From Escherichia phage UoN_LG358_1, in sequence record OK570374: DNA of 64,000 nt. One strand, 5' to 3'. The notes beneath the pieces were generated by a model, which was not told the origin of the DNA, did not search any database, and worked only from the letters and a program-made list of their open reading frames with translations. This document shows, one piece after another, positions 2,363 through 50,885 of this stretch (position 1 is the first letter of the stretch; the number at the start of each line of letters is the position of its first letter). The translations under genes and the position numbers were made by a program.

Positions 2363-2369
2363 ATATTCC

Positions 2370-3043: not shown

Positions 3044-3083
3044 TATGAAGTAATAGTAACACAGTTTAAAGCAGATGTAAACG
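3044..3083 (-). promoter_or_regulatory. T4-type early promoter
   Basis: gtaaac at 3077-3082 (GTTTAC on minus) with TGTTACTAT extended -10; upstream of motA. Confidence 0.5.
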
Positions 3084-3084
3084 G

Positions 3085-3348: not shown

Positions 3349-3387
3349 AATTTTATTCTCCAAGTTGTTTTGTTTACCATTTATTTG

Positions 3388-3428
3388 GTATGAAGTAATA
3401 GTATCAAATCTTAAAGCAGAAGTAAACG
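3388..3428 (-). promoter_or_regulatory. T4-type early promoter
   Basis: gtaaac at 3422-3427; -10 region TGATACTAT; upstream of the 3085-3348 gene. Confidence 0.5.
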
Positions 3429-3500
3429 GCTGAAGTGAAATTTTTTAAAGTTAACCAGAACGGTTTAGAGGAACGCGGAAGAAAGGATGATTAATTATAT
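3421..3500. repeat. Conserved ~85-bp promoter-upstream element, copy 1 (second copy at 55413-55495)
   Basis: About 80% identity by eye between the two copies (gtaaacggYtgaagt..ccagaacggtt.agaggaac..ggaaRgatgattaat.atat); both sit just upstream of an early promoter -35 and downstream of a hairpin. Confidence 0.5.
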
Positions 3501-3536
3501 GGACCGGGCTCTAGAATTTACTAGAGCCGTATAGAG

Positions 3537-3674
3537 TTATAGCAAAATGAAGAGAAGTGCAAGAATAAGGGCTAAACCGCCTAAAACTACGACGATTGAC
3601 AACAACCCAGCCACCAAGACCGGACTCGCATACCAAAGAAAAACCGCTAATGAAATTATCAGAGCTATTCGCAT
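3537..3674 (-). CDS. Putative 45-aa hydrophobic membrane peptide (not in ORF track)
   Basis: MRIALIISLAVFLWYASPVLVAGLLSIVVVLGGLALILALLFILL; ATG overlaps the last codons of gene 52. Confidence 0.3.
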   Translation of the reverse strand: MRIALIISLAVFLWYASPVLVAGLLSIVVVLGGLALILALLFILL

Positions 3675-5002: not shown

Positions 5003-5144
5003 ATTATTTCCAATTACCAAATGTATGAACTGATGTCAATTATAACACGTGCGAAGAAAAGCGTCATCTGTAGTGCTATAAAATACGAACTTGCGAGAAT
5101 TATTCCAAATATCACTAAACAAATTGCGAGAATTGACAAAATTT

Positions 5145-5330
5145 TCATTTAATCATGCCAGTATAAAAGAACAGACGTTCAACCGCCAAAGCAGCTATTC
5201 CGAAACACACAGCTCCAAGAACTCTTGGCGGAGGGGCTAACCCCTCCCAAATAAACATCCCAGAAACTATAAATAACGGTATCATTATAATAAACATGGT
5301 CACCCATATAGTTTTAATTGCGTCATTCAT
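5145..5330 (-). CDS. Small integral membrane protein (T4 ac/stp locus)
   Basis: 61 aa, two hydrophobic segments; AGGAAA SD; between gene 52 and ndd. Confidence 0.5.
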   Translation of the reverse strand: MNDAIKTIWVTMFIIMIPLFIVSGMFIWEGLAPPPRVLGAVCFGIAALAVERLFFYTGMIK

Positions 5331-5347
5331 AATGTTTCCTAGATAAT

Positions 5348-5491
5348 TTAAAATTGTTTAAGCGCGGAAACAACTAAAACTACGCCAAGAGTCAATTGAG
5401 CAACAAACTGAGCCACGAATGAAGACTCTCGTGTAACTGCAGTGTAAATTGCTAAACCAAACCACACCGACGCGATTAATAATGTCAACAT
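5348..5491 (-). CDS. Small 47-aa membrane protein (not in ORF track)
   Basis: MLTLLIASVWFGLAIYTAVTRESSFVAQFVAQLTLGVVLVVSALKQF; GAGGA SD 5 nt before ATG. Confidence 0.45.
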   Translation of the reverse strand: MLTLLIASVWFGLAIYTAVTRESSFVAQFVAQLTLGVVLVVSALKQF

Positions 5492-5502
5492 TTCAAATCC
5501 TC

Positions 5503-5949
5503 TTAATATTTCTGCAGAATAAATTTAAAATTATCATTTAACATGCGATTCATTTCTTCGAGGTTCTGAAATGCATCTTCGTGCTTACGAGTGAAAGCTA
5601 AAGACAATTGACCTTTACCATAGCCCGTTGTAAGAAGTTTCATTTTTTCAGCTGGAACGAATACCACACTATAAACTTGATGATTATTGCTCAAAGTGCG
5701 GCCAAGTTGAGAGCGTCCTTGACGAAATTGCGACAAAGTATTAGAAAACCCTGTTTTAGACCGTTGACGACCAACGTAACTACGAGATACTGCAAAACCG
5801 CCGTTATTCATAATAAAATAAAACCCTGGGCGAGATAGTTCTTCTTCCATAGGAACACCACACAGCCAGTTTGCGTTTTTAATCGTGCCAATTACAGTTG
5901 CGCCAGCTTTTGATAAAGTTTCGATAGACAAAAATGTACGACGGGTCAT
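5503..5949 (-). CDS. ndd: Nucleoid disruption protein Ndd
   Basis: 148 aa; matches recalled T4 Ndd (AGATVIGTIK, PGFYF, YVG.QRSK.GFS, TTG.GKGQL.LAFTR, LEEMNRML.DNFKF.LQ). Confidence 0.85.
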   Translation of the reverse strand: MTRRTFLSIETLSKAGATVIGTIKNANWLCGVPMEEELSRPGFYFIMNNGGFAVSRSYVGRQRSKTGFSNTLSQFRQGRSQLGRTLSNNHQVYSVVFVPAEKMKLLTTGYGKGQLSLAFTRKHEDAFQNLEEMNRMLNDNFKFILQKY

Positions 5950-6114
5950 ATTGATATCCTCAAGTTAAGTAATTTATTATCCTATAGTATCACATCTTTC
6001 AATTGTTGTAAACAGTTATGATAGTTTCCACAACAATAAGCTAAAACAAACGCAAATCAATGGGATAGATAATATCCAAATTAAACACCAAGCTTTACTG
6101 CTCATGATTATCTC

Positions 6115-6324
6115 TTAGTAATCTGCTAGCATGTCAACAATAGAATCGCGAAAATATTTAATGTTAATACGCTTAAAATCAATATCGCACTGTTTCGCCC
6201 CGGAAATAATCATTGAATTAAGTTCAGCTTCCAAAAATTGAAGTTCTTTCACGCATTCATTTTTATACTTAGCCATACCATGTTTTGCTTTGGCTTTCTT
6301 AAGATTAGATGAAGTGAATTCCAT
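6115..6324 (-). CDS. Hypothetical early protein
   Basis: 70 aa from MEFTSS...; GAGGA SD; the track N-terminus (MCYYYLIKTNE) is translation of the upstream promoter cassette. Confidence 0.5.
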   Translation of the reverse strand: MEFTSSNLKKAKAKHGMAKYKNECVKELQFLEAELNSMIISGAKQCDIDFKRINIKYFRDSIVDMLADY

Positions 6325-6344
6325 TGGTTTATCCTCATTTGTTT

Positions 6345-6385
6345 TGATGAGATAATAGTAACACATCCTTCCATGGATGTAAACG
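6345..6385 (-). promoter_or_regulatory. T4-type early promoter (cassette family A)
   Basis: gtaaac at 6379-6384, TGTTACTAT -10; 55-bp block identical to 31869-31932. Confidence 0.55.
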
Positions 6386-6393
6386 GCTGATAG

Positions 6394-6951
6394 TCAAATC
6401 ATTAAGTACCAACCTTGATACTTACTTCTTTTGACAATTTTCTTGGTGTCTTCTGGGTCTCCAACGAACACTGGGGTAAACTCGAAGCTTCCAGTTAAAT
6501 TCTCTACCACATCTAATATAATTATACAGTCCGCAACTTGATGGTTCAGGAACGGCCCTAGATTAACCCCATACCCATAGGGAAAGTCGCCAGAGTATCC
6601 CGTAGTAACTGAAATCCACTTAGACTCTGATTGATGTGTTTTTACTTCAATGCGGAGACCACAGTATCTTGGATGCGCAAGTACATCCCATGCGAAGGTG
6701 TAAGGGTCATCATGATTTTCTTGACCATGCATTACATAACCATCAACCCATTCTGCGACGGCCTTTTCAGCTAATTGCGCTATCATGCACCTTTTAACCG
6801 CGGCCTCTTTATCTTGGCCTGGGTCTTTTGACATCGTGTAATTTACGGTGTCTTTTATTTTAACTCTATCTTCTGGAGTTAAATCATTCTTCCCGCGGAT
6901 AAATGTCGGCAGTTTCTTCAGTCTCAACAACCCCGGATTGTTCTTGTTCAT
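6394..6951 (-). CDS. Hypothetical protein in the T4 denB (endonuclease IV) position; identity not verified
   Basis: 185 aa from the second ATG (GGTGAG SD); length and position match T4 DenB; no sequence-level confirmation. Confidence 0.4.
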   Translation of the reverse strand: MNKNNPGLLRLKKLPTFIRGKNDLTPEDRVKIKDTVNYTMSKDPGQDKEAAVKRCMIAQLAEKAVAEWVDGYVMHGQENHDDPYTFAWDVLAHPRYCGLRIEVKTHQSESKWISVTTGYSGDFPYGYGVNLGPFLNHQVADCIIILDVVENLTGSFEFTPVFVGDPEDTKKIVKRSKYQGWYLMI

Positions 6952-7210
6952 TTTGCTCACCTGTATAAACGTCTTTTACCCGAAGAATACCACAATAAAT
7001 TCGGTCATCAAAATTTAAACTTTCTTTGTTTGAGAGAGCAAATTGTATGTGTTCTTTACCAATAAAAACATCATCGCAAGTCAGTACACCATCAACATTA
7101 GGGTCAATCACCAAATCCAAAGCATATACATTTTGAGCTTTGTGATTGCCGTGCAATCGTGATTCATTAATTTTCGAATCAGAAACGTTAATCCAATTAA
7201 TCATAATCAT
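6884..7210 (-). CDS. Hypothetical protein (overlaps the next ORF by 68 nt)
   Basis: 108-aa ORF without a clear SD; lies after the rIIB terminator. Confidence 0.3.
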   Translation of the reverse strand: MIMINWINVSDSKINESRLHGNHKAQNVYALDLVIDPNVDGVLTCDDVFIGKEHIQFALSNKESLNFDDRIYCGILRVKDVYTGEQNEQEQSGVVETEETADIYPREE

Positions 7211-7216
7211 CTCTTA

Positions 7217-7240
7217 AAGAAAAAGGGACCGAAGTCCCTT
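7217..7240 (-). terminator. Rho-independent terminator after rIIB
   Basis: AGGGAC-CGAA-GTCCCT hairpin followed on the minus strand by a T-run. Confidence 0.6.
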
Positions 7241-7266
7241 AGAATTAAATTAGCGATGCGACGGTA

Positions 7267-8175
7267 TTAGAACGTGCACCATTTGCTAGTTACATCTTCA
7301 ATTACTTGGTATTTACATGTACGCATTTTAGCATCGCCGTAATCAACCGGGATAGATACTACATCTCGCGGATGAACTTTAACTGAAACGATACGGTCAC
7401 TAGAACCACGGAAATAGCTAATATAACTCTTAGAGCAAACATGCAATCCAGCTGAACATGTACGTTCGTCATCTTCATCAACCTGGTTACGAGCCATTTC
7501 TACAGTAACCCCAGGGGAGTTATCAAAAGTGCGGCTATGGCAATCTTTGTAGTTTTCAGTAACAACTTTCCAAGCGATAAAATGGCCGTCATCAGTGATT
7601 TCAATATCGTTCGCAACCAAGAAATCAAACAGACGAGCTACAGCTTTGCGACTTGGGTTTTCCATCAAATTTTCAAGGAAAGGCATATAGAATTCGAAGT
7701 TCTCGCCCTGTTCCATGGATTTCAGGATACGCTCTGTGAGACCTGATTTAATTTCGATGTCTTTATAGAACAGACGGCCTTCGTCAATTTTAACATTACC
7801 TTTAACGTAAGAGGTCAAACCTTTTTCAGCGTTAACGATTTCCAATGCGCCTTCAATATCACCATCAATCAGGCGCTGCAGAGCAATTTTAAAACCGGGT
7901 AGTTTATCATCTGCCGGATAAGTTTTGTGAGTGCTCAAATCGGTAATTGAGATAAATTTATTAGAAGCGTTCCAGATATATTCTGGCGCAGCAACCGGAG
8001 TTTCAACTGCTTCAATTTCTTCTACTTTAGTTTCTTGAGCCATTTCTTTAACTACGCGGCGGATAGTATCTACTGAACAGTTGAAGTGCTTAGCAATCCA
8101 GTCTCGTTTGTAGCCTGAATCAACATAATCAACGATAGACAATTTCTGAGAACGAGTAAACATTTGTACGGCCAT
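7267..8175 (-). CDS. rIIB: rIIB protein
   Basis: 302 aa; matches recalled T4 rIIB (VDTIRRV, IWNAS.KFISIT, GENFEFY.PFLENL.ENPS.KAV.RLFDFLVANDIEIT, SAGLHVCSKSYI, HPRDVVSIP.DY.DAKMRTC.Y). Confidence 0.88.
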   Translation of the reverse strand: MAVQMFTRSQKLSIVDYVDSGYKRDWIAKHFNCSVDTIRRVVKEMAQETKVEEIEAVETPVAAPEYIWNASNKFISITDLSTHKTYPADDKLPGFKIALQRLIDGDIEGALEIVNAEKGLTSYVKGNVKIDEGRLFYKDIEIKSGLTERILKSMEQGENFEFYMPFLENLMENPSRKAVARLFDFLVANDIEITDDGHFIAWKVVTENYKDCHSRTFDNSPGVTVEMARNQVDEDDERTCSAGLHVCSKSYISYFRGSSDRIVSVKVHPRDVVSIPVDYGDAKMRTCKYQVIEDVTSKWCTF

Positions 8176-8184
8176 AATTACCTC

Positions 8185-11112: not shown

Positions 11113-11640
11113 TTATTCACTCATCCAGACCTTGCGAGGAGCCGCATCATTACCCATAACCATTTCAAAAAGTTCTTTCCAATTTGGCGGCAATGACACT
11201 ACGTCATAAACCGGTTGCTGAATAACTCGTTCATATTCATCTTCTTCCAAAGAACCAAGTCCTTTGATGTAACGAAGTTTCCATCCAGCAAGTTTATCTT
11301 TTTCAGCTTCATATTCGGCGGCATTGTAATACCATTTTTGTTCAGAGCCCTTTGACATAATAATCACTGGGGTTTTAACAAACCGAATACGTCCTTCTTC
11401 GAACAATTTCGGCCAATTAGCAAAGAACGCTAGCAGGCTTGGATAAATTGACCCTGTGCCAAATATCTCTATTGTGAGGTATATCAATGATTAGCCCGAA
11501 GGCTAACCATCAACATCAGCATCAGTCATGATGGCAATGTTTTTATAATTCAAAGAAGAAGTTGATGTACGACGTACAATTGTCTGGGCTTTATATGATT
11601 TCATATCAATTTCAGTTTCTTTAACTTTAGCAAATTTCAT
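11113..11640 (-). CDS. 60: DNA topoisomerase II small subunit gp60 with an internal translational-bypass gap: codons 1-45 at 11506-11640, resumption at 11113-11457
   Basis: N-segment MKFAKVKETEIDMKSYKAQTIVRRTSTSSLNYKNIAIMTDADVDG ends in GGT followed by TAG; C-segment (T)GSIYPSLLAFFANWPKLFEEGRIRFVKTPVII... matches recalled T4 gp60 after the hop; combined 159 aa versus 160 in T4. Confidence 0.85.
11458..11505 (-). other. Untranslated coding gap of gene 60 (48 nt including the landing codon GGC)
   Basis: Take-off GGT (11506-11508) then UAG; hairpin UUAGCC-UUCG-GGCUAA (11491-11506); in-frame UAA; GAG 6 nt 5' of landing GGC (11458-11460). Confidence 0.6.
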
Positions 11641-12340
11641 TTAAAACCTCATAAAATTTTTCATCAGGAGTCCAACCGTTTTTAAACTGATTGAACGCGA
11701 TTTTGAACAGTTTCGTTTTGATAGTTATATTATTAACCGTTTTCCATTTAGCAATTCCGGTTTTCTTATAACTAACTGGGTCATAAACGTTAGCATACCA
11801 ATCATAAAGGGACGGAATCAACTTAACTGCGTCTGGATTGGTTTTAGATTTGTTATACCAAGGTTTAGATTTTTCAAGGGCGGCTGCTACTTTTGTAGCG
11901 TTTAACGTGTTACCAACTCCGCATAAACCAAGGTCCTTTATTAAAGGGTCGTCCGTTCTTAGTCTATAGGTTGTGTTATCTTTATCCTTGTAAACTCCGT
12001 ATCCTTTCACACCTTCAAATTTTCTTCCGTAATTTACGCCAACCCAATCTTCTTCAGTGTATTCGCCTTTCGTCAGTAATCGACATTCTCCAGTTTCTTT
12101 ATTTCTAAGTAAAATTTTGTCACGCATGAACTCAGCAGACCAATCTGAAATCATATTAACATAATTTTTCCTGGCTATTTCATAAAGTTTAGAACGAAAT
12201 ATTGTTCCAGAATTCATTATCCGGTTCAAAGCATAAGACATTTCTTTGTTTTTATGAATTTTAAACAATAACCAGTGCGCAATAAAATGTTCGCGATATG
12301 TCAATTTTACCAAATTATCTGAAGTATCTAATCCACCCAT
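11627..12340 (-). CDS. mobA: MobA-like HNH homing endonuclease between genes 39 and 60 (reading frame open upstream to the gene 39 stop codon)
   Basis: 237 aa from first ATG, beginning inside the HNH motif (GGLDTSDNLVKLTYREHFIAH); in-frame upstream codons encode ...EIHHILPRS with no stop back to the gene 39 UGA. Confidence 0.7.
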   Translation of the reverse strand: MGGLDTSDNLVKLTYREHFIAHWLLFKIHKNKEMSYALNRIMNSGTIFRSKLYEIARKNYVNMISDWSAEFMRDKILLRNKETGECRLLTKGEYTEEDWVGVNYGRKFEGVKGYGVYKDKDNTTYRLRTDDPLIKDLGLCGVGNTLNATKVAAALEKSKPWYNKSKTNPDAVKLIPSLYDWYANVYDPVSYKKTGIAKWKTVNNITIKTKLFKIAFNQFKNGWTPDEKFYEVLNEIC

Positions 12341-12421
12341 GCTTCTTGGAAGTATATGATGAATTTCTCCTTTAACCGGCGGAACCCTGGTTTTACCCCG
12401 GGAAATTAGTTTTTCTATAAT

Positions 12422-13975
12422 TCATACTAAGTCTTTTACTTTTTTCCAGACGCCATCAATAAAAATTTCGTCATTGATATTAACTACAATATCTTCACCG
12501 GCAACATTTACAGTATACCATTGTTCGCCGGCTTCAACTTCCGTGAATGGGTCTTCACCAATGACTAACCCAGTAATTGCACAAATATCAAAGATTTCTT
12601 TGTTTTTCAAAGCATCACCTGCAGACATTCCCCAGGTGTTCATCACTTTACCACGTAATGGATAACCGCCATGAAGGGCACGGTCACGAGTATTAATTAG
12701 ATAACCAATAGCAGAATCACCTTCTGTTAAAAACAAAGTTGTTTCTACTTTATCATTACCATATTCGCCAGCTTTGATGTGTTTATGAACTTTAGCTTTG
12801 GCCGCCTTTTTCGCTGCTTTGGTTTCTGCTGCTTTCTCTGCCGCTAGTTTACGTGCTAATGCAGCTTCAATAATCGGCATTAAAATAGCATCAGATTTCA
12901 TAATCTGATTAGAAATTTTCTTTGCATCGAGATTTAAGTGAGATTTAATTTCGCCCCATGGACTTGTAAGACGCTCTTTGGTTTGCGAGTCAAAGCGCAA
13001 GTTACTCATATCTCGAATAAACATCAACACAGTAAAACACTCTTTAATACGAGCTTTGTTTACTTCAATTTTGTGTTTACGTTTAATAGCCGGAATTAAT
13101 TCATTAGCAATTTCGTCAATAACATAATCAATATGCGAACCGCCATTCTTTGTATGAATGTTGTTAACATAAGTCATTTGACGAAAACCATCTGGAGAAT
13201 TACCTATAGCCAAAGAATAATTTTCTTCATCAATAATGATAGCATTTTTATCATACTGCTTAGAATATTTTTTGAAATTACTATCAACTTTTTTATTGTT
13301 AAATTTAAATTCAATTTTTGGATAAACGACTGCCAATGTCTGTAAACGGTCCAACATAATATCAAAATAAACATCATCAAAATTGTTCATTTCGAAATGG
13401 CTAAAATCTGGAATAAATTCTACCTTAGTTCCTTTATAAGAGGATTTTTTGGATTTCCAAGAAACATTGTCAGAATTATTGCTACAAGAAACTGTTAATT
13501 CATTTTCTCCATCAGATGTTGTACCTTTAAACATAACAGAGAAAATATTAGTCAATGAAGAACCAACACCGTTTTGCCCGCCAGTTTTACGCTCTTCATC
13601 AGCTCCAAAGTTTCCGCCTGCCTTAGTTTTCGTCCATGCTGCTACTGGACCAGGAATTTCTTCACCTTCAGGAGTAGTAACCATAGCCTGTGGAATTCCA
13701 CGGCCATTATCTTCTACGGTCACTTTGCTTGTGGAAGAATCGATATTGACTGAAATTTTATTAGCAAATTTAAAACTTGTACGGATAGCTTCATCAACAG
13801 AGTTATCGATAATTTCATCAATAAGTTTGAGAACGCCAGCTACGTATTGTACCCGCTTAAATTCGCCAAAAACAAAACGCTCATGAAATTCGTTAGATAC
13901 ACTTCCGATGTACATTCCAGGACGCTTAAGAACGTGTTCCTTGTCAGAGAGCATTTGAATTTTATTTTCAATCAT
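12422..13975 (-). CDS. 39: DNA topoisomerase II large subunit gp39 (GyrB-like ATPase)
   Basis: 517 aa; matches recalled T4 gp39 (GMYIGS, LIDEIIDNSVDE, VEDNGRGIPQAMV.TP.GEEIPGPVAAWT, GGNFG, GVGSSLTNIFSVMF, TEGDSAIGYLI). Confidence 0.92.
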   Translation of the reverse strand: MIENKIQMLSDKEHVLKRPGMYIGSVSNEFHERFVFGEFKRVQYVAGVLKLIDEIIDNSVDEAIRTSFKFANKISVNIDSSTSKVTVEDNGRGIPQAMVTTPEGEEIPGPVAAWTKTKAGGNFGADEERKTGGQNGVGSSLTNIFSVMFKGTTSDGENELTVSCSNNSDNVSWKSKKSSYKGTKVEFIPDFSHFEMNNFDDVYFDIMLDRLQTLAVVYPKIEFKFNNKKVDSNFKKYSKQYDKNAIIIDEENYSLAIGNSPDGFRQMTYVNNIHTKNGGSHIDYVIDEIANELIPAIKRKHKIEVNKARIKECFTVLMFIRDMSNLRFDSQTKERLTSPWGEIKSHLNLDAKKISNQIMKSDAILMPIIEAALARKLAAEKAAETKAAKKAAKAKVHKHIKAGEYGNDKVETTLFLTEGDSAIGYLINTRDRALHGGYPLRGKVMNTWGMSAGDALKNKEIFDICAITGLVIGEDPFTEVEAGEQWYTVNVAGEDIVVNINDEIFIDGVWKKVKDLV

Positions 13976-28512: not shown

Positions 28513-29589
28513 TTACAGGTCAATAGCCTTGCGGAACTCTTCTTGCCAAATTGGTTTTTCATCAAGATATTTTTGAAGAATTTTGTGCTGATATTTCAAA
28601 GTTTCAACACGGAACTCTTCATCTTCTTTAATCTTGTTGATTTTATCTACTAATTCTTGACGATTACTCACATAAAAGAAATCATTACCTTCCATGATAT
28701 TCATGTCAGGGTCAAACGTGCTATCGAAGAATGCCACTGCAGTAGATGCTAGAGCTTCCCATACACGAGGAGTGATTTGGTTGTTATCGTAGGTTTTATC
28801 ACCTAATACAATAGTAGCATACGCGGTTGAGTTGCGTTGAACCATTTCACGAGAGTCTACTTTACCGGGGAATACCGGCGGAGTCGTCCAAGGAAATTCT
28901 GGGTTCTTGAACTGTTCTGCTTTCACTGAACCAAAGAATTCAACATCCAATCCAGTATCAAATAGGTATTCAACCATTTTAGCTTCACGGTTACCAGAAC
29001 GGAAAGTGCCGCCATAAATCAGGTCTCGCATTTTGATGCCATCTGCGGCAATCTTAAAGACACTATGATACATTTTATGACGGTCCAAAGCAAAATGAAC
29101 GAATTCTAGTTTATCGGATAAACATCCAACTAAACGATCAGAATGAATTTTCTTGCATTGCTCTAGATTTCTTCCTTGAGATACAATACGCATTGGAGAT
29201 GTTACAATGAATTGTTCTTCTTTATATTTACTGGACCATTTCTTTTTAGACATCCTTCGCCAAGCTTGCTCAAACGGAAGACGAATATCGGTGAACAAAT
29301 AATAAATTTTTGATTTATACTTATTCATGAACATATAAGCTTCTTTGTTCATCTTATTTTCTTCGCCGCCATAGAAGTTCAGAGCAGCATTAACGACCAA
29401 TAAGCGGTCATACACATTCGGGTCTTTTACTGAATCGAAAGAAATTCCATACTGTGTATTTTTCATTGAAATAAGGTCAACATCAAGACCCATATCTTTT
29501 AAACATTCGGACAAATAAATTGTTTCTGAAGCAGGGGTTGTTTTAAACCCCTGGATGTTATTGCCCATATTAATAATAGCAATTTTCAT
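28513..29589 (-). CDS. DNA beta-glucosyltransferase (hmC-DNA)
   Basis: 358 aa; matches recalled T4 beta-gt (MKIAIINMGNN, KYKSKIYYLFTDIRLPF, YGG.FRSG.RE.KMVE.LFDTGL, FKNP..PWT..PVF.GK, AFKKAIDL-type C-terminus). Confidence 0.9.
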   Translation of the reverse strand: MKIAIINMGNNIQGFKTTPASETIYLSECLKDMGLDVDLISMKNTQYGISFDSVKDPNVYDRLLVVNAALNFYGGEENKMNKEAYMFMNKYKSKIYYLFTDIRLPFEQAWRRMSKKKWSSKYKEEQFIVTSPMRIVSQGRNLEQCKKIHSDRLVGCLSDKLEFVHFALDRHKMYHSVFKIAADGIKMRDLIYGGTFRSGNREAKMVEYLFDTGLDVEFFGSVKAEQFKNPEFPWTTPPVFPGKVDSREMVQRNSTAYATIVLGDKTYDNNQITPRVWEALASTAVAFFDSTFDPDMNIMEGNDFFYVSNRQELVDKINKIKEDEEFRVETLKYQHKILQKYLDEKPIWQEEFRKAIDL

Positions 29590-30422
29590 AGTGTCGGTTC
29601 AATCTCGCTAAATTTATGAAAAGCATCTGACTTCTGCTTTTTAGCAACACACATACGAAGTACTTTCAAAGGTTCATCAGTACCAAACATAGTTTTGGTT
29701 GGGTCACCTTCTGATTTCCACCGAGCTTGAGTTGGGAAGTCAGCATGAATTTTTTCCAGCGCTCTGTTCTGTTTAGCAGCATTACGCATAGATGATACAC
29801 CGCCTGGAGCTTGTCCTTTACCTGATTTAACGAGATATTTAAAAATCGCCAAATGAGGATAACCCATATTAATGAGTTTAAGAAACGCGTATGTATCTTC
29901 GGATAGGTCTACTATACCATATCCAATGTCATCGGCAGAAAGTTTGCTTAAATCATAAAAAGTATTTGTAAACCCGTAAGAGTTCTCACGGAAATGACCC
30001 CATTTAGAGTCAATCTTGAATATTGGCAAGCGAGCGTGACCATGATAAAAGCCGCAGTCCATCGCTGTTTCAACATAAAGACAAAGATTATTAAATTCAT
30101 CCCAGGTCATTCCAACATCATGGAGAATGCGCCGGTCATCTTTTTCGCGAATTTCCGTTGTATGAATAGTAGTATCATCATCCAACATCCAAATTCGTTG
30201 TCCTTGATACATTTCGGTGATTAAACGACGAGTACCAGCAATCCCATTTACATCATCCGGGATAGTTACTATTTTAGCAATTGTGCTATATCGAGTTTCG
30301 TATTCTTCTTTTTGAGACTCGCGAACTACAAGATGAGCGACATAACCTTCAGGGAACATGTCTAGGGCAGTAACTGCCCCGGCACGATTATAACTTGGAA
30401 TTACAAATTGAATCATTTCCAA
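29586..30422 (-). CDS. Putative nucleotide-sugar glycosyltransferase (GT-A-like motifs); candidate second DNA sugar transferase
   Basis: 278 aa; N-terminal FVIPSYNRAGA and WMLDDDT (DxD-like) motifs; translationally coupled between gene 42 (10-nt overlap) and beta-gt (ATGA overlap). Function inferred from motifs only. Confidence 0.4.
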   Translation of the reverse strand: MEMIQFVIPSYNRAGAVTALDMFPEGYVAHLVVRESQKEEYETRYSTIAKIVTIPDDVNGIAGTRRLITEMYQGQRIWMLDDDTTIHTTEIREKDDRRILHDVGMTWDEFNNLCLYVETAMDCGFYHGHARLPIFKIDSKWGHFRENSYGFTNTFYDLSKLSADDIGYGIVDLSEDTYAFLKLINMGYPHLAIFKYLVKSGKGQAPGGVSSMRNAAKQNRALEKIHADFPTQARWKSEGDPTKTMFGTDEPLKVLRMCVAKKQKSDAFHKFSEIEPTL

Positions 30423-31150
30423 TAACCTTTGTAATCTTTCTTTGGTATATGAGTTTCACCAGTGTGATAAAAATGGTCAACTAGATAAAATTGATTTTCA
30501 TATACATGGAGGCTTCCGGCGTTCCAAATAATGTCACCAACTACATATTTTTTATCGCGACCGCAGTTAAGTGTCTGTACTAATAATTCTAATACATGTT
30601 TTTGCCAAGCATAGTCATTACGATAACCTGCCCAGCAATCGTTGCTTCTCATACTCACAACAGCATGAACTTGCTCATCGCGAATTAAGTATTGAACCGT
30701 GTTTGTACACATGAAATCACTCATACCGTCACGGTTATAATCAGTCTGCATACTTGGACGAGTATAAATCATAATTCCACGGCGAGAATCTGGATTGACA
30801 CTCAGTTCAGCCGCACAACTTGCAAATTGGCTATAATTATCTTTATTCCAAATCGCCCATCCGTAGTTTGAGTTAATCTCGCCGTTTTTGGATGAAATCT
30901 GGTCCCAAATTGCTGGAGTTTTTCCTGGAATGTCTTTAACGAATAAACTTTGAGACTTATACCATTCTAATTCGCGGGCTACATACTCATCATTAACTGA
31001 ACCAAAAATAAGTTCTTCATCTGCAACAAAAGACGCGCCGATAATTTCAATAGTTTTTACGCCAGTTTTGTCAATAACAAACTCTTCATTTTCGAGAGCT
31101 ACAGCAAATTCCTGACGAATGTCTTGTACTGTCAAAGGTGTGATAATCAT
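30413..31150 (-). CDS. 42: dCMP hydroxymethylase gp42
   Basis: 245 aa; matches recalled T4 gp42 (VDKTGVKTIEIIGASFVADE, LEWYKS.SLFVKDIPG, NPDSRRGIMIYTRPSMQ, DGMSDFMCTNTVQYLIRD). Confidence 0.9.
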   Translation of the reverse strand: MIITPLTVQDIRQEFAVALENEEFVIDKTGVKTIEIIGASFVADEELIFGSVNDEYVARELEWYKSQSLFVKDIPGKTPAIWDQISSKNGEINSNYGWAIWNKDNYSQFASCAAELSVNPDSRRGIMIYTRPSMQTDYNRDGMSDFMCTNTVQYLIRDEQVHAVVSMRSNDCWAGYRNDYAWQKHVLELLVQTLNCGRDKKYVVGDIIWNAGSLHVYENQFYLVDHFYHTGETHIPKKDYKGYWK

Positions 31151-31423: not shown

Positions 31424-31870
31424 TTATTTAGCATTTTTAGCCATACATTTATTAAAAGCTTTCACTTTTCCGCCTGAACGATAATGAATAACTGCCAGAC
31501 GAGTTTTATTATTTGGATTTTTGAAGTATTGTTCACGAAGAACTTCTTCATGAGCTTCTACCACAAATTCACACATTCTGATAGCTTTTTCCTTTTTATC
31601 GAGTGCAGCTTGACGTTCATCACCTTCAGCTACTGATTTTTTAATTGCAGCTTCAAGCGGACTATTCGCGCGCCGTTCTTCAATTTCTTTAATAGCGTTA
31701 AGAGTTTCCTGCGAGACTTGAGAAGTTGCACGAGTATAAACCATCCCAGAAGCTGGTTTGTAAACCAAATTACCTTCACTTCCATAATGTGGTTGCGAAT
31801 AAGGTTGAATAGAACAACCTGCTAAAGTAGTTGCTGCTAGAACAATCAGTGATTTCAAATTAAATTTCAT
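31424..31870 (-). CDS. Lipoprotein (signal peptide with LAGC lipobox)
   Basis: 149 aa from MKFNLKSLIVLAATTLAGCS; GAGGAA SD; the track N-terminus is promoter read-through. Confidence 0.6.
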   Translation of the reverse strand: MKFNLKSLIVLAATTLAGCSIQPYSQPHYGSEGNLVYKPASGMVYTRATSQVSQETLNAIKEIEERRANSPLEAAIKKSVAEGDERQAALDKKEKAIRMCEFVVEAHEEVLREQYFKNPNNKTRLAVIHYRSGGKVKAFNKCMAKNAK

Positions 31871-38018: not shown

Positions 38019-39700
38019 TTTTCCATTACCGTGAATCTGCCAACTTTCTTCATCTGAAGATGTTGCCCATAATCCTGCGGGTCATGGTCTTTATGGCTTA
38101 TGATAAAGATATTACTATCAGTCATTCCATTGAGAATTGTTCCTACTCGCTTAATACCTTCATTATCAAACGCGCCATCATAAACTTCATCAAGAAAGAG
38201 ACAGTTAATTTTAACATTAGAAACTTTTTCAGCAATGTCTCGCCACGTGAACAGCAACGCAATATCAATACGAGCTTTTTCGCCTTGGCTGAATGACGCA
38301 TAACTGAATTCTTCGCGCCCGCGAGATTTAATAGTTTCGGTGAATTCTTCGTTCAAAGTAAAGACATAATCAGCTTCCATAATTTTAAGATACTGATTAA
38401 TCTGTTTGTTGAACATCGGAATATATTTGCTAATAATAGCTCCCTTGATACCCGAATCTTTCAGCATTTCAGTTAAAATGCCTCGATGATATTTTTCCAT
38501 AACCATATTGGATTTGGTATCAACTATTTTATTCAATTCTTCGTTAAGCGTTTTAATCTCATCGGCATGATTGATGAATTCTTTTGATGCTTTTTCAATC
38601 GCCGCTTTTACTTTTTTAGCCTTTTCTACTGTTGAAATTAAAGTTTGCTTTTTAGATTTTATGTCTTGAGCAAGTTCACGTTGCGTTCTAACGTTGCTCT
38701 CATATTCATGCACTAGTGTCTCTAGATTGGCTCTATGACTTTCTAACGACTCTGATTTATGTTTACATTCATTAATCTTATCGTTAATCTGAGTGACTAG
38801 AGATGACCCAGAGTCTAATTGTTGCATGCATGTTGGGCATGAACCTCCAGAATGATACAAAGAAACAACCTTGTTATATGAGTCAATTTTAGACTTAATC
38901 AACAGAGTTTGATTACCAATTTCAGTAAACGCGGACCGAGGGTCTTCATCAAGCACGATAGATGTTAAACGCTCAGTTGCTTTTTCAATTTCGGATTTGA
39001 TAGAACGTGCTTCAGTCGCAAGTTCATCATACATGGTCTGAAAACGAGCTATATTTTCTCCTGATAGCTTTTTCTGGCGTTCAACGTTCTCTTCATAAAT
39101 TTTAATCTGTTGGATAATTCCGTCTTTCTTTGCGTCCAACACAGAGACTTGTGAATTAATTTCTCTTATATGAGATTTATTCAATTTATCCATTTCAGCT
39201 AATGTAGAAACTTCGAGCAAGTCTTCTACTAACTTCCGCCGAGCTGGAGTACTCAAACCCATGAACGGTGTATAACCAGCTGTACCAAGCACAACTACTT
39301 GCTTAAAGCTGGAATAAGACATTTTGATAAGTTCTTCAAAATAGCTTTGAAAATCTTTAACAGAAGCTGCCTCGTCCAGGCGAACTCCGTCTCGAGTTAT
39401 TTCAAAGATATTCGGCTTTTGACCGCGCTTTATATAAAAATGCTTACCGTCATACTCCATCCAAAGCTCTACTAACATATCTTTTTTATTAATAGAGTTT
39501 ACTAGTTGTCCTTTCTTAATATCACGGAACGGTTTGCCAAATAAAGCAAATGTAATAGCTTCCAGCATGGTACTCTTACCACCACCATTTTTGCCGGTGA
39601 TGAGAGTTTTTTGTACCTTATCAAGTTGAATATCAATTGGAACTTGTCCAACAGACATTATATTAGAATATTTTACTCTATTAAGTTTAAAGGTTTTCAT
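38015..39700 (-). CDS. 46: Recombination nuclease subunit gp46 (Rad50/SbcC-like ATPase)
   Basis: 561 aa; Walker A GKNGGGKST; near-colinear with recalled T4 gp46; C-terminus QHLQMKKVGRFTVM. Confidence 0.9.
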   Translation of the reverse strand: MKTFKLNRVKYSNIMSVGQVPIDIQLDKVQKTLITGKNGGGKSTMLEAITFALFGKPFRDIKKGQLVNSINKKDMLVELWMEYDGKHFYIKRGQKPNIFEITRDGVRLDEAASVKDFQSYFEELIKMSYSSFKQVVVLGTAGYTPFMGLSTPARRKLVEDLLEVSTLAEMDKLNKSHIREINSQVSVLDAKKDGIIQQIKIYEENVERQKKLSGENIARFQTMYDELATEARSIKSEIEKATERLTSIVLDEDPRSAFTEIGNQTLLIKSKIDSYNKVVSLYHSGGSCPTCMQQLDSGSSLVTQINDKINECKHKSESLESHRANLETLVHEYESNVRTQRELAQDIKSKKQTLISTVEKAKKVKAAIEKASKEFINHADEIKTLNEELNKIVDTKSNMVMEKYHRGILTEMLKDSGIKGAIISKYIPMFNKQINQYLKIMEADYVFTLNEEFTETIKSRGREEFSYASFSQGEKARIDIALLFTWRDIAEKVSNVKINCLFLDEVYDGAFDNEGIKRVGTILNGMTDSNIFIISHKDHDPQDYGQHLQMKKVGRFTVMEK

Positions 39701-40529
39701 TTAATATCCGTCTGTCAAATTCGGCTACTATAGCTTGTAAAGAACTTGTTATGGGATGCCCGAGTTTAATAAGTTCTTTTGAAAATGTAGAATATCTAGG
39801 TTTATTCATTTTAATCCACTCTGTATAAAGCAAATCAAAATTTTGCCATTGATACGATTTTCTTCTGGATTTTAAATGAGCCTCTCTAATTTCGTCATTC
39901 TTCCAACTTTGAGAAACTCCCAATGATAAAGATTTACGATAATCTAAATTTTTAGATGAGAGTCTAGTTGCATTTAAATGCTTAATTTTATTTTCTGGAT
40001 TTTCAAACCACTCTTTAGTTTTCTTAGATACTAAAGACTTAAATTCATTTGAATTTACTCGTTCCAGGTGAATTTTTAAATTATCGGAATTTTCAAACCA
40101 TCGTTTGACTGCTTGGCTAATTTTTATTCTGTTTTCTGCTATTGAATAATAACTGGACATTTTGATTGAAATAGCCTTTGAAATTTCAGTAGAAACTTTT
40201 GAATATATTTTAGCCATTTCTTCAAATTCTTCAAAACTACATTTATAAGCAGTTTTGCTATTATTCATTCTATTAATAGCTTGCAACATTCTATAATCTT
40301 TAGTTTCAGACAATATAGCATGTGCAATAAAATGGTTATAATGTGTTAAATGCACAATATTTGACGGGTCTTTAGCATATTCTGGAAAAATGGACTTTGG
40401 TAAAATATGATGAGCTTGAGTATGTCCTTTGTTTAACTTGGTTGAATTAGTTTTAATAAATTCTACATACTTATTAACGCCTTCCCATTGAGGGAAGGCT
40501 GCTTTTAATATAGTCTCAGCGTCAATCAT
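39687..40529 (-). CDS. Free-standing HNH homing endonuclease between genes 47 and 46
   Basis: 280 aa; HHILPKSIFPEYAKDPSNIVHLTHYNHFIAH HNH motif; basic repeat-rich C-terminal half; overlaps both neighbours. Confidence 0.8.
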   Translation of the reverse strand: MIDAETILKAAFPQWEGVNKYVEFIKTNSTKLNKGHTQAHHILPKSIFPEYAKDPSNIVHLTHYNHFIAHAILSETKDYRMLQAINRMNNSKTAYKCSFEEFEEMAKIYSKVSTEISKAISIKMSSYYSIAENRIKISQAVKRWFENSDNLKIHLERVNSNEFKSLVSKKTKEWFENPENKIKHLNATRLSSKNLDYRKSLSLGVSQSWKNDEIREAHLKSRRKSYQWQNFDLLYTEWIKMNKPRYSTFSKELIKLGHPITSSLQAIVAEFDRRILNENL

Positions 40530-41548
40530 TGATTTTGGACCTCGATATAAAGTTGATTAGCATATTTTATAACTGCTTTCCTGTCATCGTTGGATAAATC
40601 AGGTAAAGAGTTAATATATTCTTCCATAAGTTCAAGTAAGCTTTTAACTTCTACTTCAGCTTCTTCATCAACTTCAAGAGAATTATCAATCTTTGAAACG
40701 GTACGAAGCTCATGAACAACTTTTTCGAGTTCGCTTTCAAATTTTGGAAGGTCTTTATCAACTTCTGTAATAATGACACGAACTGAAATATTTTTGTAAC
40801 GATTAATATCAAATTTACCCTTAAATGGATAAATTATTTTTTGATGCCAACATGTTTCGTTTTCGATAAAATCAAAACTGTCATCTTGAGTGTCCTGTAT
40901 CCAAAAACCTCGCGGGTCATTTTCGTCTCCCGCAGTAAGTGTCCATGGTGTGCCAATATATTTGACATTAGCGGCACTAGAGATAGTATGGAAGTGTCCA
41001 GAACGAACATGTTTATATTTTTTAAGGAAATCAGGTTCCAACCCGTGGGATTTTAATCCTTTGTAGTAATAAAAACCACTTAATTCCCAATGACCAATGC
41101 AAATATCAGCATCAGATGTTTTGATGTGATTCATTATATCGGACGCGTTCTCTTCGCACATCCACGGAATCATATCAATCAAACAACCATCAAAATCTAC
41201 AGTTTCAGGAATATCATGAATTATGATATGGTCATATTTACCGAGAATCTCAGTAATCGCGTTAGGGCGAAGTGTGTTCTTATAATGCATGTCATGATTA
41301 CCAATTATGGTATGCATCGTAATACCAGCTTCATCCAATAGCGTTGCTATCTCACGGGCAAATTCCATAGTCTTATGAGTGATAGCTTTACGAACGTCAA
41401 AGATGTCGCCGTACTGAACCCATGTAGTTATGCCATGCTTTTTAGAATATTCAATCTTTTGACGTATTCCATCTCGCTGGATATTCTGAAGCCAAGGGTC
41501 ATCGCCCTTAACTCCTAAATGCCAATCACCTGTGTGAAGAATTTTCAT
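40526..41548 (-). CDS. 47: Recombination nuclease subunit gp47 (Mre11/SbcD-like)
   Basis: 340 aa; phosphoesterase motifs GDWHLG, GDIFD, GNHD, GHWE, GHFH; near-colinear with recalled T4 gp47. Confidence 0.9.
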   Translation of the reverse strand: MKILHTGDWHLGVKGDDPWLQNIQRDGIRQKIEYSKKHGITTWVQYGDIFDVRKAITHKTMEFAREIATLLDEAGITMHTIIGNHDMHYKNTLRPNAITEILGKYDHIIIHDIPETVDFDGCLIDMIPWMCEENASDIMNHIKTSDADICIGHWELSGFYYYKGLKSHGLEPDFLKKYKHVRSGHFHTISSAANVKYIGTPWTLTAGDENDPRGFWIQDTQDDSFDFIENETCWHQKIIYPFKGKFDINRYKNISVRVIITEVDKDLPKFESELEKVVHELRTVSKIDNSLEVDEEAEVEVKSLLELMEEYINSLPDLSNDDRKAVIKYANQLYIEVQNQ

Positions 41549-41688
41549 ATATCAAGCGCCGTCATAGCTGAGAGAATTAATATCATAGAAATGAACCCAT
41601 CTGGTGTAGAAAAGAATCCAACCCAACAAGCTCGGCCAAATAAGTATAATCCTGCCAATAGGCTAAGTATGCCTAAGTAAGTAATCAT
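41545..41688 (-). CDS. Putative 47-aa membrane peptide (not in ORF track)
   Basis: MITYLGILSLLAGLYLFGRACWVGFFSTPDGFISMILILSAMTALDI; stop overlaps the gene 47 ATG. Confidence 0.3.
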   Translation of the reverse strand: MITYLGILSLLAGLYLFGRACWVGFFSTPDGFISMILILSAMTALDI

Positions 41689-41760
41689 CTTTTCACCCCA
41701 AATATATTTTTAACATGTACAAAAATGATAATTAATTATATCAAATGTATAAAAAGCAAA

Positions 41761-42090
41761 TTAATACGCGCACAATATTTTTGAAACGTTTGACTGGTTA
41801 ATTTTGTGAATAAACTCACATTTTTCTTCTGGCGATAATTCGTGATTTCTGATGAGTGTCGCACAAGGATATTTTGGTGGATAATCTTTCTTTAAAACTA
41901 AAAGCAACTCATCCAAATATCCGCAACTATCATAAGCATGCCGAAGTTTAACAATATCAACATGCTTAATGCGTTCAAAATCTTTAGAGCTTTGTACTGT
42001 ACTTCGCCAATGCACTTCATTATCTTTAGTCGTTGGAGAAATATAAACTGCAACTCTTAGTTCAGTGTCATTTAATTTAATTTTTTCCAT
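41761..42090 (-). CDS. Hypothetical protein
   Basis: 109 aa from ATG at 42090 (GAGGT SD); track start is TTG. Confidence 0.45.
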   Translation of the reverse strand: MEKIKLNDTELRVAVYISPTTKDNEVHWRSTVQSSKDFERIKHVDIVKLRHAYDSCGYLDELLLVLKKDYPPKYPCATLIRNHELSPEEKCEFIHKINQSNVSKILCAY

Positions 42091-42103
42091 TATTACCTCA
42101 AAG

Positions 42104-42128
42104 AACAAAGGGAGCCTCGGCTCCCTTA
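42104..42128 (-). terminator. Possible terminator hairpin
   Basis: GGGAGCC..GGCTCCC stem with T-rich tail on the minus strand. Confidence 0.35.
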
Positions 42129-42262
42129 AATTTTACGATATGTTATAGTATTTTCGGCTTTTGCTTTATCGTGTAATAGTTTGAATTGTGACATCATTTC
42201 AGACATGCTGTTATGTATTTTTGTATAATCAACAGTCTTCTTTGGAGTTTCTGCCACGATTT

Positions 42263-42475
42263 TTACCATTTCCACCACCGTTTAACTTGAAAAGTATCAG
42301 CCCAAACTAATGTTTTTTCATCTATAGCAATCTCTGAACTTTTAGTTACACCATACGGACCAAGAATTTTGTATGTGTTTTTAGAAGTTTTTAGAGCCAT
42401 TGTTCCATTAACCATAGATAGAGTGAAACAGGCATTAACTTTAAGACGTTTGAATTTAACCTTTACTATTGCCAT
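42263..42475 (-). CDS. Hypothetical small protein
   Basis: 70-aa ORF. Confidence 0.4.
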   Translation of the reverse strand: MAIVKVKFKRLKVNACFTLSMVNGTMALKTSKNTYKILGPYGVTKSSEIAIDEKTLVWADTFQVKRWWKW

Positions 42476-42788
42476 TTACAATTTCCCAAATCTGTCGACG
42501 AGTGGTTTCCCACTGTACTTTGACAAGTTCATCTGTATAAGGTTGGCGTAAAATGTCCCGAGATTTCTCGATAGCATATTTGTACGCCGCGAAGTTATTT
42601 TCTACTACTACTGCTCTTTGTGCATGCTCATTTAAACGTTTAAGTTCTTTTGCATGCTTTTTATAAATTTTCGCTGCTTTAGCGTTAGCTTCTTGACGTG
42701 TTGCTTCTTCCATTCGAGCGATAATTTGTTCTACTTCTTCTGGGTTTTCATCAATTTTATTGATATTATCAATAATCTCTGGAGACAT
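42456..42788 (-). CDS. Hypothetical protein
   Basis: 110-aa ORF, coiled-coil-like. Confidence 0.45.
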   Translation of the reverse strand: MSPEIIDNINKIDENPEEVEQIIARMEEATRQEANAKAAKIYKKHAKELKRLNEHAQRAVVVENNFAAYKYAIEKSRDILRQPYTDELVKVQWETTRRQIWEIVNGNSKG

Positions 42789-42797
42789 TTAATTACC

Positions 42798-43052
42798 TTA
42801 TTTTGGAAAATAATCCAATGAAAAATAAAATCCGTCAGGAGATACAACATACTGATGAGGAACTTCTTTTCCATCAACAATAAATGTAATATCATGCGGA
42901 TTAGTTGGGTCAATATGAATATCCATTTCGAGAACTTCCCTTAAATACATTTTTAGTATATAAGGAATAGCTTCTAATTCTGGAATATCTTCAAGCATTC
43001 CTGCGAGGTCAATCTTCAGCCTCATATAAAAAATCCAAATTCGGAGAATCAT
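42798..43052 (-). CDS. Hypothetical protein
   Basis: 84-aa ORF overlapping the gene 55 end. Confidence 0.4.
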
Positions 43053-43548
43053 CTATTTCAACACTCTTTTTGTCAGACCCTGGTGCTTTGTAGGTAGATT
43101 CTTCATAATGCGTCATTTTATCGTAGATGTCCTGAATGAACGTTTCATCTGCTAACGCGACCATATCATCGTCACGACTGTCATAGACATTGTGAACAAA
43201 ATAGCTATATTTCTTTGCCATCTCTTTGCGTTCTTTTTTGATACGCTGAACGAAAGCATTAAAACAAGCCTGAGTTATGTATGCATGTGGGTTTTTGTAT
43301 TTCTCTTCGTCAAAGTTTTTGAGACCTTTAATAGCAGCCTCAACTCCATCAGAAATCATTTCATCTTTCCATGATTGGGTGTATCCTGAAAAGTTAAAAC
43401 GCTTTGACAATCCCTCGGAAATAAGCATAATAGCTTTTCCAATAGTGTCATTCTGACGAACAAGCGTTCCTTCTGGCGCTTCTCTACATTTTTGTTTCCA
43501 TTCACATATTGCGTTGTAAAGCTCTTTGTTGTTTACATAGTCAGCCAT
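43009..43548 (-). CDS. 55: Late-transcription sigma factor gp55
   Basis: 179 aa; matches recalled T4 gp55 ([70 protein letters not shown]). Confidence 0.9.
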
Positions 43549-43617
43549 TAATACCTCATCGCCTCAAGTTTATATATACTTTTATTATATCATATTTGTG
43601 GGACAAGAGGTTATTTG

Positions 43618-43905
43618 CTAATTAGAAGAACGAAGAATGCAATACATCTGAAAAAGTTGTTCACCAATTTCTTTAAATTGGTCAAATAAAAGAAAATAAG
43701 CTGTGTATGAATACAAGTCATTATCTTCCCAAAAATCGTTGAAACTATTAAACATTTCGGTGTAATCTTTTTGGTTGAGCTTTGAAGCATGAGAATGCCA
43801 ATATACTCCAGGCATCGCATCGGTTTCAAATTTAATTCCCATCATATAATCAACACTAAAAATACCAAAATTCTCAATAATTAATTTAAGTTCTGTTCTT
43901 TTCAT
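43618..43905 (-). CDS. Hypothetical protein
   Basis: 95-aa ORF; preferred over the overlapping 43611-43829 frame. Confidence 0.4.
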   Translation of the reverse strand: MKRTELKLIIENFGIFSVDYMMGIKFETDAMPGVYWHSHASKLNQKDYTEMFNSFNDFWEDNDLYSYTAYFLLFDQFKEIGEQLFQMYCILRSSN

Positions 43906-49932: not shown

Positions 49933-50097
49933 TCAATTATATAGCCAATATGTCCTTGCCCATTTCTTACGGTTTCGGATTTGAGTTTTAGTCGGCTTAG
50001 TAGAGAACCACCAGGAAATTTTATATCCATCGTCAAAATCAAAAATTAGATGCCATTTAGACATCTGATTTGATACATACTTTAATTCAGTTTTCAT
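49933..50097 (-). CDS. Possible 54-aa protein (weak)
   Basis: Short ORF with Trp-rich C-terminus; no clear SD. Confidence 0.25.
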   Translation of the reverse strand: MKTELKYVSNQMSKWHLIFDFDDGYKISWWFSTKPTKTQIRNRKKWARTYWLYN

Positions 50098-50104
50098 TTA
50101 AATA

Positions 50105-50524
50105 CTAGCTGGAAAAAGATAGCTGTTTTTCTAGAGCTCGAATATAATCCGCTGCTGCTTGCATTATATTAGCTTCATACCCATTAACACGGATTTTCGC
50201 GGCTTCAAGATGGTCTGTTATTGGTTGTCCGTCGTCAAAAAATCCTAAAGTAACCGCTGGAAATAAATCAGAATCATATTCTTCGATTTCTTTAAGTTGA
50301 TACATACCGTCTTCACAGTAAAAACACCAGAACCAACTATCGCGAGCGTTAATATGAAGATAAGGGCCGTTTTTAATTTTGACAGAAGTGATACCGTCTT
50401 CATGGCCGTTTTCTTTGTCAACAGTAATAACTTTAAAAACAGTTCCGACTTTCATTTCAGGAAATTGTTCCAGAAGTTCTTCATCGTCTTCAATAATTTC
50501 AAAAACTTTATTCACTAAACTCAT
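50105..50524 (-). CDS. Hypothetical acidic protein
   Basis: 139 aa from ATG at 50524 (1 nt after the upstream stop); track start is TTG. Confidence 0.45.
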   Translation of the reverse strand: MSLVNKVFEIIEDDEELLEQFPEMKVGTVFKVITVDKENGHEDGITSVKIKNGPYLHINARDSWFWCFYCEDGMYQLKEIEEYDSDLFPAVTLGFFDDGQPITDHLEAAKIRVNGYEANIMQAAADYIRALEKQLSFSS

Positions 50525-50525
50525 A

Positions 50526-50885
50526 TTAAATTCCATCACTTTTAGTATTAGGAGTATCAAATAATGATATTACACAATCCGGATTTCCAGTTATATGACA
50601 GCTTGTAAACAGTGCCCAACGGCTTAAAGCCCATTTACCTAAAATAATTTTAGACCTTTTGTTGGATTCTTCAACGCTGAGAGTCATATTAAGTCTTGGA
50701 AAATAAACAGAAGTGATACCAGTGATTTCTCCAGTGTCAGTAAAACTTGTGTAGCATTTGGAAATAACAAGTTCATCACCAGGGATAACACCCATATCTC
50801 TGAAATAGTCTATCACATCTCCAAGCTCATGCTTGACTTTAAAAACTTCCGGTTTTACTGTAAGTTTAAGTCCAGTTAAATTCAT
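50526..50885 (-). CDS. Hypothetical protein
   Basis: 119-aa ORF; GAGGG SD. Confidence 0.45.
   Translation of the reverse strand: MNLTGLKLTVKPEVFKVKHELGDVIDYFRDMGVIPGDELVISKCYTSFTDTGEITGITSVYFPRLNMTLSVEESNKRSKIILGKWALSRWALFTSCHITGNPDCVISLFDTPNTKSDGI

Follow-up and report, generated by a model that had tools for sequence, protein, structure and literature searches.

This report concerns the interval between genes 47 and 55 (positions 41545-43008) in a 64,000-nucleotide (nt) stretch of Escherichia phage UoN_LG358_1 (sequence record OK570374), and the glucosylation of hydroxymethylcytosine (hmC) predicted for this phage. The whole 64,000-nt stretch is referred to as the window. In phage T4 the alpha-glucosyltransferase gene, a-gt, lies between genes 47 and 55. 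The window comes from a Gelderlandvirus (the S16/STP4-a group of Tevenvirinae), a T4-like Salmonella phage lineage; the gene order of the region is T4-like, with all genes on the minus strand. The best megablast match of positions 40400-43700 was Salmonella phage STP4-a (99.3% identity), followed by Melville, CF-SP2, CGG4-1, STML-198 and S16 at 95-98%, all of which are members of Gelderlandvirus.

The downstream border is gene 47, encoding the SbcD-like recombination nuclease subunit (40526..41548, minus strand; tblastn with T4 gp47, 72% identity over 337 amino acids (aa), E = 3e-168), which is annotated likewise in Melville and STP4-a. The upstream border is gene 55, encoding the late sigma factor (43009..43548, minus strand; 80% identity to T4 gp55, E = 8e-96). 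Next to gene 47 lies a homolog of T4 47.1, a predicted membrane protein of 47 aa (41545..41688, minus strand; tblastn 64% identity, E = 2e-15; phrog_6693, 1.9e-25), with a stop codon overlapping the start of gene 47 and 89% identity to Merlin gp59. It is followed by ORF109, an orphan gene of 109 aa that stands in place of T4 a-gt and mobB (41761..42090, minus strand; ATG start with GAGG in front of it), and then by homologs of four more T4 genes, all on the minus strand: a-gt.2 (42126..42269, 47 aa from the ATG; tblastn 59% identity, E = 2e-12; phrog_2140), a-gt.3 (42263..42475, 70 aa; tblastn E = 4e-8; phrog_1648, 6e-29; 40% identity to T4 a-gt.3 and 51% to CC31 a-gt.3 by blastp), a-gt.4 (42456..42788, 110 aa, DUF2654; tblastn E = 3e-26; PF10849, 4.2e-24; phrog_951) and a-gt.5 (42798..43025, 75 aa, DUF5491; tblastn 59% identity, E = 5e-25; PF17595, 2.6e-25). 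The mechanical open reading frame (ORF) of the a-gt.2 homolog, read from a GTG, reaches 42278, and the 144-nt form is the one annotated in Melville; the a-gt.5 homolog extends beyond 43008 into the 3' end of gene 55.

Using tblastn, we found that the T4 proteins 47, 47.1, a-gt.2 to a-gt.5 and 55 match the interval in T4 order, and that T4 a-gt and mobB have neither a counterpart nor a remnant there. DNA homology to T4 breaks off at 41633 and restarts at 42126, so that 492 bp correspond to 2,238 bp of T4, and the 0.49-kb segment that replaces the T4 a-gt and mobB cassette has one gene only, ORF109. No ORF between 41545 and 43008 exceeds 115 aa on either strand. Thus, the claim of an earlier sequence-only reading that the interval holds no a-gt is borne out, as neither tblastn nor a profile search (see below) found it and no gene of about 400 aa is present. 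The same reading had counted five ORFs of 47 to 115 aa; the short sizes are right, and the count should be six on the minus strand, of 47, 109 (115 from an upstream TTG), 47 (50 from a GTG), 70, 110 and 75 (84 from an upstream ATG) aa. These ORFs are not anonymous: five of the six are homologous to T4's own neighbour genes. A search of the interval against Rfam gave one sub-threshold chance match only, and a repeat search of it gave only short chance pairs.

The absence of a gene carries no chance statistic; its weight rests on a search proven able to detect a-gt. The search covered the window and the complete genome of STP4-a (159,914 bp), the nearest relative with a sequenced genome, which served as a proxy for the isolate. 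With the 400-aa T4 a-gt product (a GT-B protein, PF11440; from NC_000866) as tblastn query, the best E-value was 0.16 in the window, on the non-coding strand, and 0.41 in STP4-a. A profile hidden Markov model (HMM) built from three a-gt sequences (T4, Cronus and K65PH164) was applied without filters to the 1,982 segments of 40 aa or longer in the six-frame translations of both sequences; its best E-value was 2.7, compared to 6.9e-250 for the T4 positive control. On the same segments, the RB69 ORF003c-type arabinosyltransferase gave E = 0.61 at best (phmmer), and Pfam recognized no glycosyltransferase among ten of the window's ORFs that are large or lack annotation. The STP4-a annotation lists beta-gt and ba-gt as the only glucosyltransferases. 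The sequence-only reading had allowed for an a-gt homolog elsewhere in the genome; in the STP4-a proxy none was found by tblastn or by the profile HMM.

The genes for hmC glucosylation are found at another locus, where three genes overlap one another (28513-31150, minus strand). The first of the run is gene 42, for dCMP hydroxymethylase (30413..31150; PF00303, 1.6e-15; so annotated in STP4-a). The second is TAGT, a 276-aa homolog of the T2/T6 beta-glucosyl-HMC-alpha-glucosyltransferase (29586..30416; PF20691; phrog_842, 3.7e-82 over the full length), which shares 4 nt with gene 42 at one end and 4 nt with beta-gt at the other. Its match to PF20691 is narrow (29.4 bits against a cut-off of 27.5, residues 5-90 only); it shows 64% identity to RB18 ggt over the full 276 aa and keeps the DxD motif of the GT-A type, WMLDDDTTI aligned with WMIDDDTTI of RB18 ggt. 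The third is beta-gt, for a beta-glucosyltransferase of 358 aa (28513..29589; PF09198, 2.6e-62, 209.9 bits against a cut-off of 27), which aligns with the T4 beta-GT structure 1BGT at E = 3e-113 (residues 1-358 to 1-351). In this HMMER alignment E22, D100, R191, R195, R269 and E272 (T4 numbering), which we take to be the catalytic and uridine diphosphate (UDP)-binding residues of T4 beta-GT, are all identical. The beta-gt plus an additional glycosyltransferase-like gene noted in the sequence-only reading are therefore present; both appear intact, and the additional gene is the TAGT homolog (PF20691).

The beta-gt product is 100% identical to that of STP4-a, and the TAGT product is 99.6% identical to that of STP4-a and 95% to that of CC31. 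We found beta-gt of at least 80% identity in 59 phage records; the features named under the match include ba-gt or TAGT in most rows of the listing. The TAGT identities are bimodal in the phage collection: 58 records reach 90% or more, and 616 lie between 60 and 80%. The examples listed from the first group are beta-gt genera (Gelderlandvirus, Karamvirus and Moonvirus, across which TAGT is at least 92% identical) and Enterobacter phages; among the matches listed, the TAGTs of a-gt phages have 64-73% identity to that of the window. This bimodality suggests two classes of TAGT that follow the anomer which the first transferase produces.

Comparison of the a-gt site in other genomes shows a variable cassette slot with at least five states, given the layouts of T4, the window and Merlin, CC31, SEA1, and K65PH164 and Cronus. 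Merlin (Moonvirus) is laid out like the window and also has a homolog of ORF109. In CC31 (Karamvirus) the slot is empty and the a-gt.2 homolog abuts gene 47. In Klebsiella phage K65PH164 (Jiaodavirus) and in Erwinia phage Cronus (Roskildevirus) a-gt lies exactly between a-gt.2 and 47. In SEA1, a gene for a 206-aa GIY-YIG endonuclease (L007 1427-2047) replaces 47.1, ORF109 and a-gt.2; because SEA1 is also a Gelderlandvirus, the slot is a hot spot within a single genus of closely related phages as well. Homing endonuclease genes cluster at this place, namely mobB in T4, the GIY-YIG gene in SEA1 and a MobD-like gene in the window. The latter encodes an HNH homing endonuclease of 280 aa between genes 46 and 47 (39687-40529, minus strand), the product of which has no Pfam match; it is present in Melville, and STP4-a has a 46.1-like ORF of 207 nt instead.

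Some annotation details of these small genes may be recorded here. The 47.1 homolog is unannotated in the STP4-a RefSeq record (L003 ~31692-31835). The a-gt.2 homolog of Merlin (L009 2340-2528) is labelled "head maturation protease", a name also carried by phrog_17354, which the a-gt.2 homolog of the window matches. The a-gt.2 homolog CC31p053 (L008 3304-3552) is extended at its N-terminus by an additional Cys-rich stretch.

The hairpin noted in the interval by the sequence-only reading is indeed there. It is terminator-like and lies directly after the a-gt.2 homolog (42108..42127, minus strand), reading AAGGGAGC-CGAG-GCTCCCTT and then a T-rich tail; the 8-bp stem has five GC pairs and the loop is 4 nt (-14 kcal/mol, z = -1.97). 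GC-rich tetraloop hairpins occupy the equivalent position in T4, Merlin, CC31, K65PH164 and Cronus. Before 47.1 there is a putative middle-promoter-like element (41735..41760, minus strand), consisting of the MotA-box-like TTTGCTTTT, an 11-nt spacer and TATAAT. In six genomes from five genera (T4, CC31, Merlin, K65PH164, Cronus and SEA1), complete modules combining stem-loop, TGCTT Mot box and -10 element lie at the slot borders.

ORF109 is no glycosyltransferase and is an orphan phage protein. It has no Pfam domain and belongs to a PHROG family of unknown function; tblastn retrieved 24 records, and among protein clusters a word-indexed search found one and an exhaustive HMMER search of 1.84 billion representatives found four. 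The homolog in Citrobacter phage Merlin (L009 1970-2308) has 44% identity. The fold is predicted with confidence (predicted local distance difference test, pLDDT, 90), and neither PDB nor BFVD contains a match to it beyond its own family; it is not a glycosyltransferase fold.

The isolate is a mosaic that matches no deposited genome exactly. From 14882 to 64000 it has about 99.7% identity to STP4-a, with the exception of two inserted segments (39638-40525 and 50032-50481). The first 12.6 kb have about 94% identity at best to any record in the phage collection, and within them positions 1-8184 (the holin to rIIB region) have 91-95% identity at best to any deposited genome. The mosaic structure follows from the divergence of the first 8 kb and from the 450-bp segment at 50032-50481 that is absent from STP4-a. 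This segment is overlapped by an ORF of 151 aa (50105-50560). At the locus under study, single substitutions in the interval and the homing-endonuclease gene between 46 and 47 are all that sets the isolate apart from deposited relatives.

Another cassette of the window is found in gene 39 (topoisomerase II large subunit; 11113-13975, minus strand), which is split by a mobA-like HNH ORF (11627-12340). After this ORF there is a translational bypass of the gene-60 type, with a gene-60-like start at 11640. The bypass includes 45 codons (MKFAKVKETEIDMKSYKAQTIVRRTSTSS...DADVDG) up to the take-off codon GGU (GGT 11506-11508) and the stop TAG (11503-11505), followed by a UAGCC-UUCG-GGCUA stem-loop and, after a 48-nt gap, the landing codon GGC (11458-11460), after which TGSIYPSLL is read; from there on the reading continues exactly as in the uninterrupted gp39 of STP4-a. 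The T4-type bypass, as in HY01, has a 50-nt gap and GGA/GGA, whereas here these are 48 nt and GGU/GGC. S16 carries the same cassette (98% identity), annotated as two separate coding sequences, and gene 39 of STP4-a is intact, so the genus is polymorphic for this cassette. The GGU/GGC case of S16 has already been described (bioRxiv 10.1101/2022.08.31.505936).

The lack of a-gt together with a beta-gt and TAGT pair is the normal and already known state of this lineage, according to both the literature and RefSeq annotation. CC31 has been reported to carry beta-gt and beta-alpha-gt and no a-gt (Petrov et al. 2010, PMC2993671 Table 4), and for S16, STML-198 and STP4-a a-gt is given as "n/a", with 50% identity for beta-gt and 64% for T2 ba-gt (Thomas et al. 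2018, PMC6024577 Table 1). Among 753 phages that encode any T-even glucosyltransferase, a 2026 survey counted only 6 with both the alpha- and the beta-enzyme, all 6 of them Tequatrovirus, and most of the 753 had one of the two along with TAGT (PMC13216743); thus, it is T4 that is the exception in having both. The framing of the missing a-gt in the sequence-only reading calls for correction: the gene set is the published one of the CC31/S16 type and is neither special to this genome nor a loss. Its prediction that the modification pattern differs from that of T4 is a fair one, as a-gt is absent from the slot and from STP4-a and the beta-gt and TAGT genes appear intact.

We are highly confident that the best explanation is a lineage-typical cassette slot from which a-gt is absent, with hmC glucosylation encoded by the beta-gt/TAGT locus. 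The 47-55 interval is the ordinary form that the variable cassette slot of T4-like genomes takes in this lineage: the conserved neighbours 47.1 and a-gt.2 to a-gt.5 are present, and the single orphan ORF109 serves as the cassette, as it does in Moonvirus. The same slot is the one occupied by a-gt in T4, Jiaodavirus and Roskildevirus. Judging by these patterns, the cassettes are probably exchanged by recombination at the modules of stem-loop and middle promoter. The a-gt gene is not needed; hmC glucosylation is encoded 11 kb away by 42, TAGT and beta-gt.

Several points weigh against this explanation. The module halves in the window are split by ORF109, with the hairpin before it and the Mot box and -10 element after it, and a strict scan of the window found two complete modules, both elsewhere than at the slot. 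A role of such modules in recombination would be an analogy to the published PeSL/PmSL modules. The isolate has at least three cassette insertions relative to STP4-a, and about 96 kb of its genome lie outside the window and are represented by the STP4-a proxy only. Finally, we found no nucleoside or chemical analysis of the DNA of a phage with beta-gt and TAGT in the searchable literature.

These points bear on the alternatives. Since the isolate is identical to no deposited genome and has cassettes beyond those of STP4-a, an extra cassette with an a-gt homolog is conceivable beyond the 64-kb window. We consider this very unlikely, given that the complete STP4-a genome lacks a-gt by both search methods, that S16 and STML-198 are likewise reported to lack it (PMC6024577 Table 1), and that the co-occurrence of the two transferases is restricted to the six Tequatrovirus genomes mentioned above. 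Indirect support comes from the "Salmonella"-named records, in which 12 a-gt and 16 beta-gt matches add up to the 28 TAGT matches, as expected if the a-gt and beta-gt sets do not overlap. A recent deletion of a-gt in this genome, with the interval as its scar, would fit an interval that is 1.7 kb shorter than that of T4. However, the same layout is present at 96-99% identity in about a dozen independent Gelderlandvirus isolates and also in a second genus, Moonvirus; tblastn found no remnant of a-gt or mobB in the interval, and the replacing sequence codes for a conserved, well-folding protein. The deletion scar is thus extremely improbable, and we rejected it on the grounds that the interval layout is kept across two genera.

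The two other alternatives concern the function of the genes that are present. ORF109 sits at the exact a-gt site of other genera, in phages with beta-gt and TAGT, and one could imagine a novel DNA-modifying or sugar-transferring protein that substitutes functionally for a-gt. Its length of just 109 aa and lack of a Pfam domain argue against such a role, and CC31, SEA1 and many other phages with beta-gt and TAGT do without ORF109, which makes it dispensable for the pathway; hardly any credence is left for this substitution. It is also very improbable, if slightly less so than the preceding three, that beta-gt and TAGT are inactive relics and the DNA carries plain hmC or some other modification. 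The literature searched yielded no biochemical data on this lineage, which leaves some room for such relics. However, both products are full length, the six beta-GT residues and the DDD motif of TAGT are conserved, and in several genera the two genes are conserved at 88-100%, which indicates purifying selection on them.

Under the lineage-typical slot and beta-gt/TAGT explanation, hmC would replace cytosine, and beta-GT is predicted from its sequence to add glucose in beta linkage to essentially all hmC. In T4 lacking a-gt, beta-glucosylation reaches 99% (PMC13216743). TAGT may put a second sugar on some residues, and the DNA would be without alpha-glucosyl-hmC, unlike that of both T4 and T2/T6. 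The 47-55 interval is not involved in this predicted chemistry. The role of TAGT alongside beta-GT has been stated to be undefined (PMC13216743), and how TAGT acts on beta-glucosylated DNA is the question that this locus raises. One possibility, to which we give somewhat less than an even chance, is that the TAGT of beta-gt phages is a distinct class that may extend beta-glucosyl-hmC to a beta-first disaccharide-hmC, a stereoisomer of the alpha-gentiobiosyl-hmC of T2/T6; the literature that could be searched yielded no account of the chemistry of such a base. This possibility bears on the gene 42 region rather than on the 47-55 interval. Because the DNA is predicted to lack alpha-glucosyl-hmC, it should escape alpha-specific defences, e.g., the Brig1 glycosylase, and it would still be a potential target of GmrSD-type enzymes (defences as in PMC13216743). 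Such escape may be relevant, as phages of the S16 type are broad-host-range Salmonella phages.

The locus can be compared to several known systems. It shares with the T4 a-gt locus (47, 47.1, a-gt, mobB, a-gt.2-5, 55) the flanking genes, their order and strand and the hairpin after a-gt.2, and differs from it by 0.49 kb with ORF109 in place of the 2.2 kb of a-gt and mobB; T4 also has beta-gt, but no TAGT beside gene 42. The stem-loop, TGCTT Mot box and -10 element at the slot borders of the six genomes compared resemble the PeSL/PmSL promoter-stem-loop modules that were proposed as mediators of modular shuffling in T4-like phages (PMC2839356, PMC4122927), except that the module of the window is in two parts separated by ORF109. 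The set of T2/T6, in which a-gt and TAGT produce alpha-gentiobiosyl-hmC, is similar in that a TAGT homolog immediately follows gene 42. The difference is in the first sugar, which in T2/T6 is added by a-gt in alpha linkage and here, as far as can be read from the genes, would be added by beta-GT. T2/T6 TAGT transfers beta-1,6 glucose onto alpha-glucosyl-hmC, whereas no alpha-glucosyl acceptor is predicted here; the acceptor of TAGT would be the other anomer, because the first transferase is beta-GT and not a-gt. The closest system is the CC31/S16-type set of Karamvirus, Gelderlandvirus and Moonvirus, with the same gene content and order (42, TAGT, beta-gt) and likewise no a-gt between 47 and 55, from which the window differs in nothing of substance.

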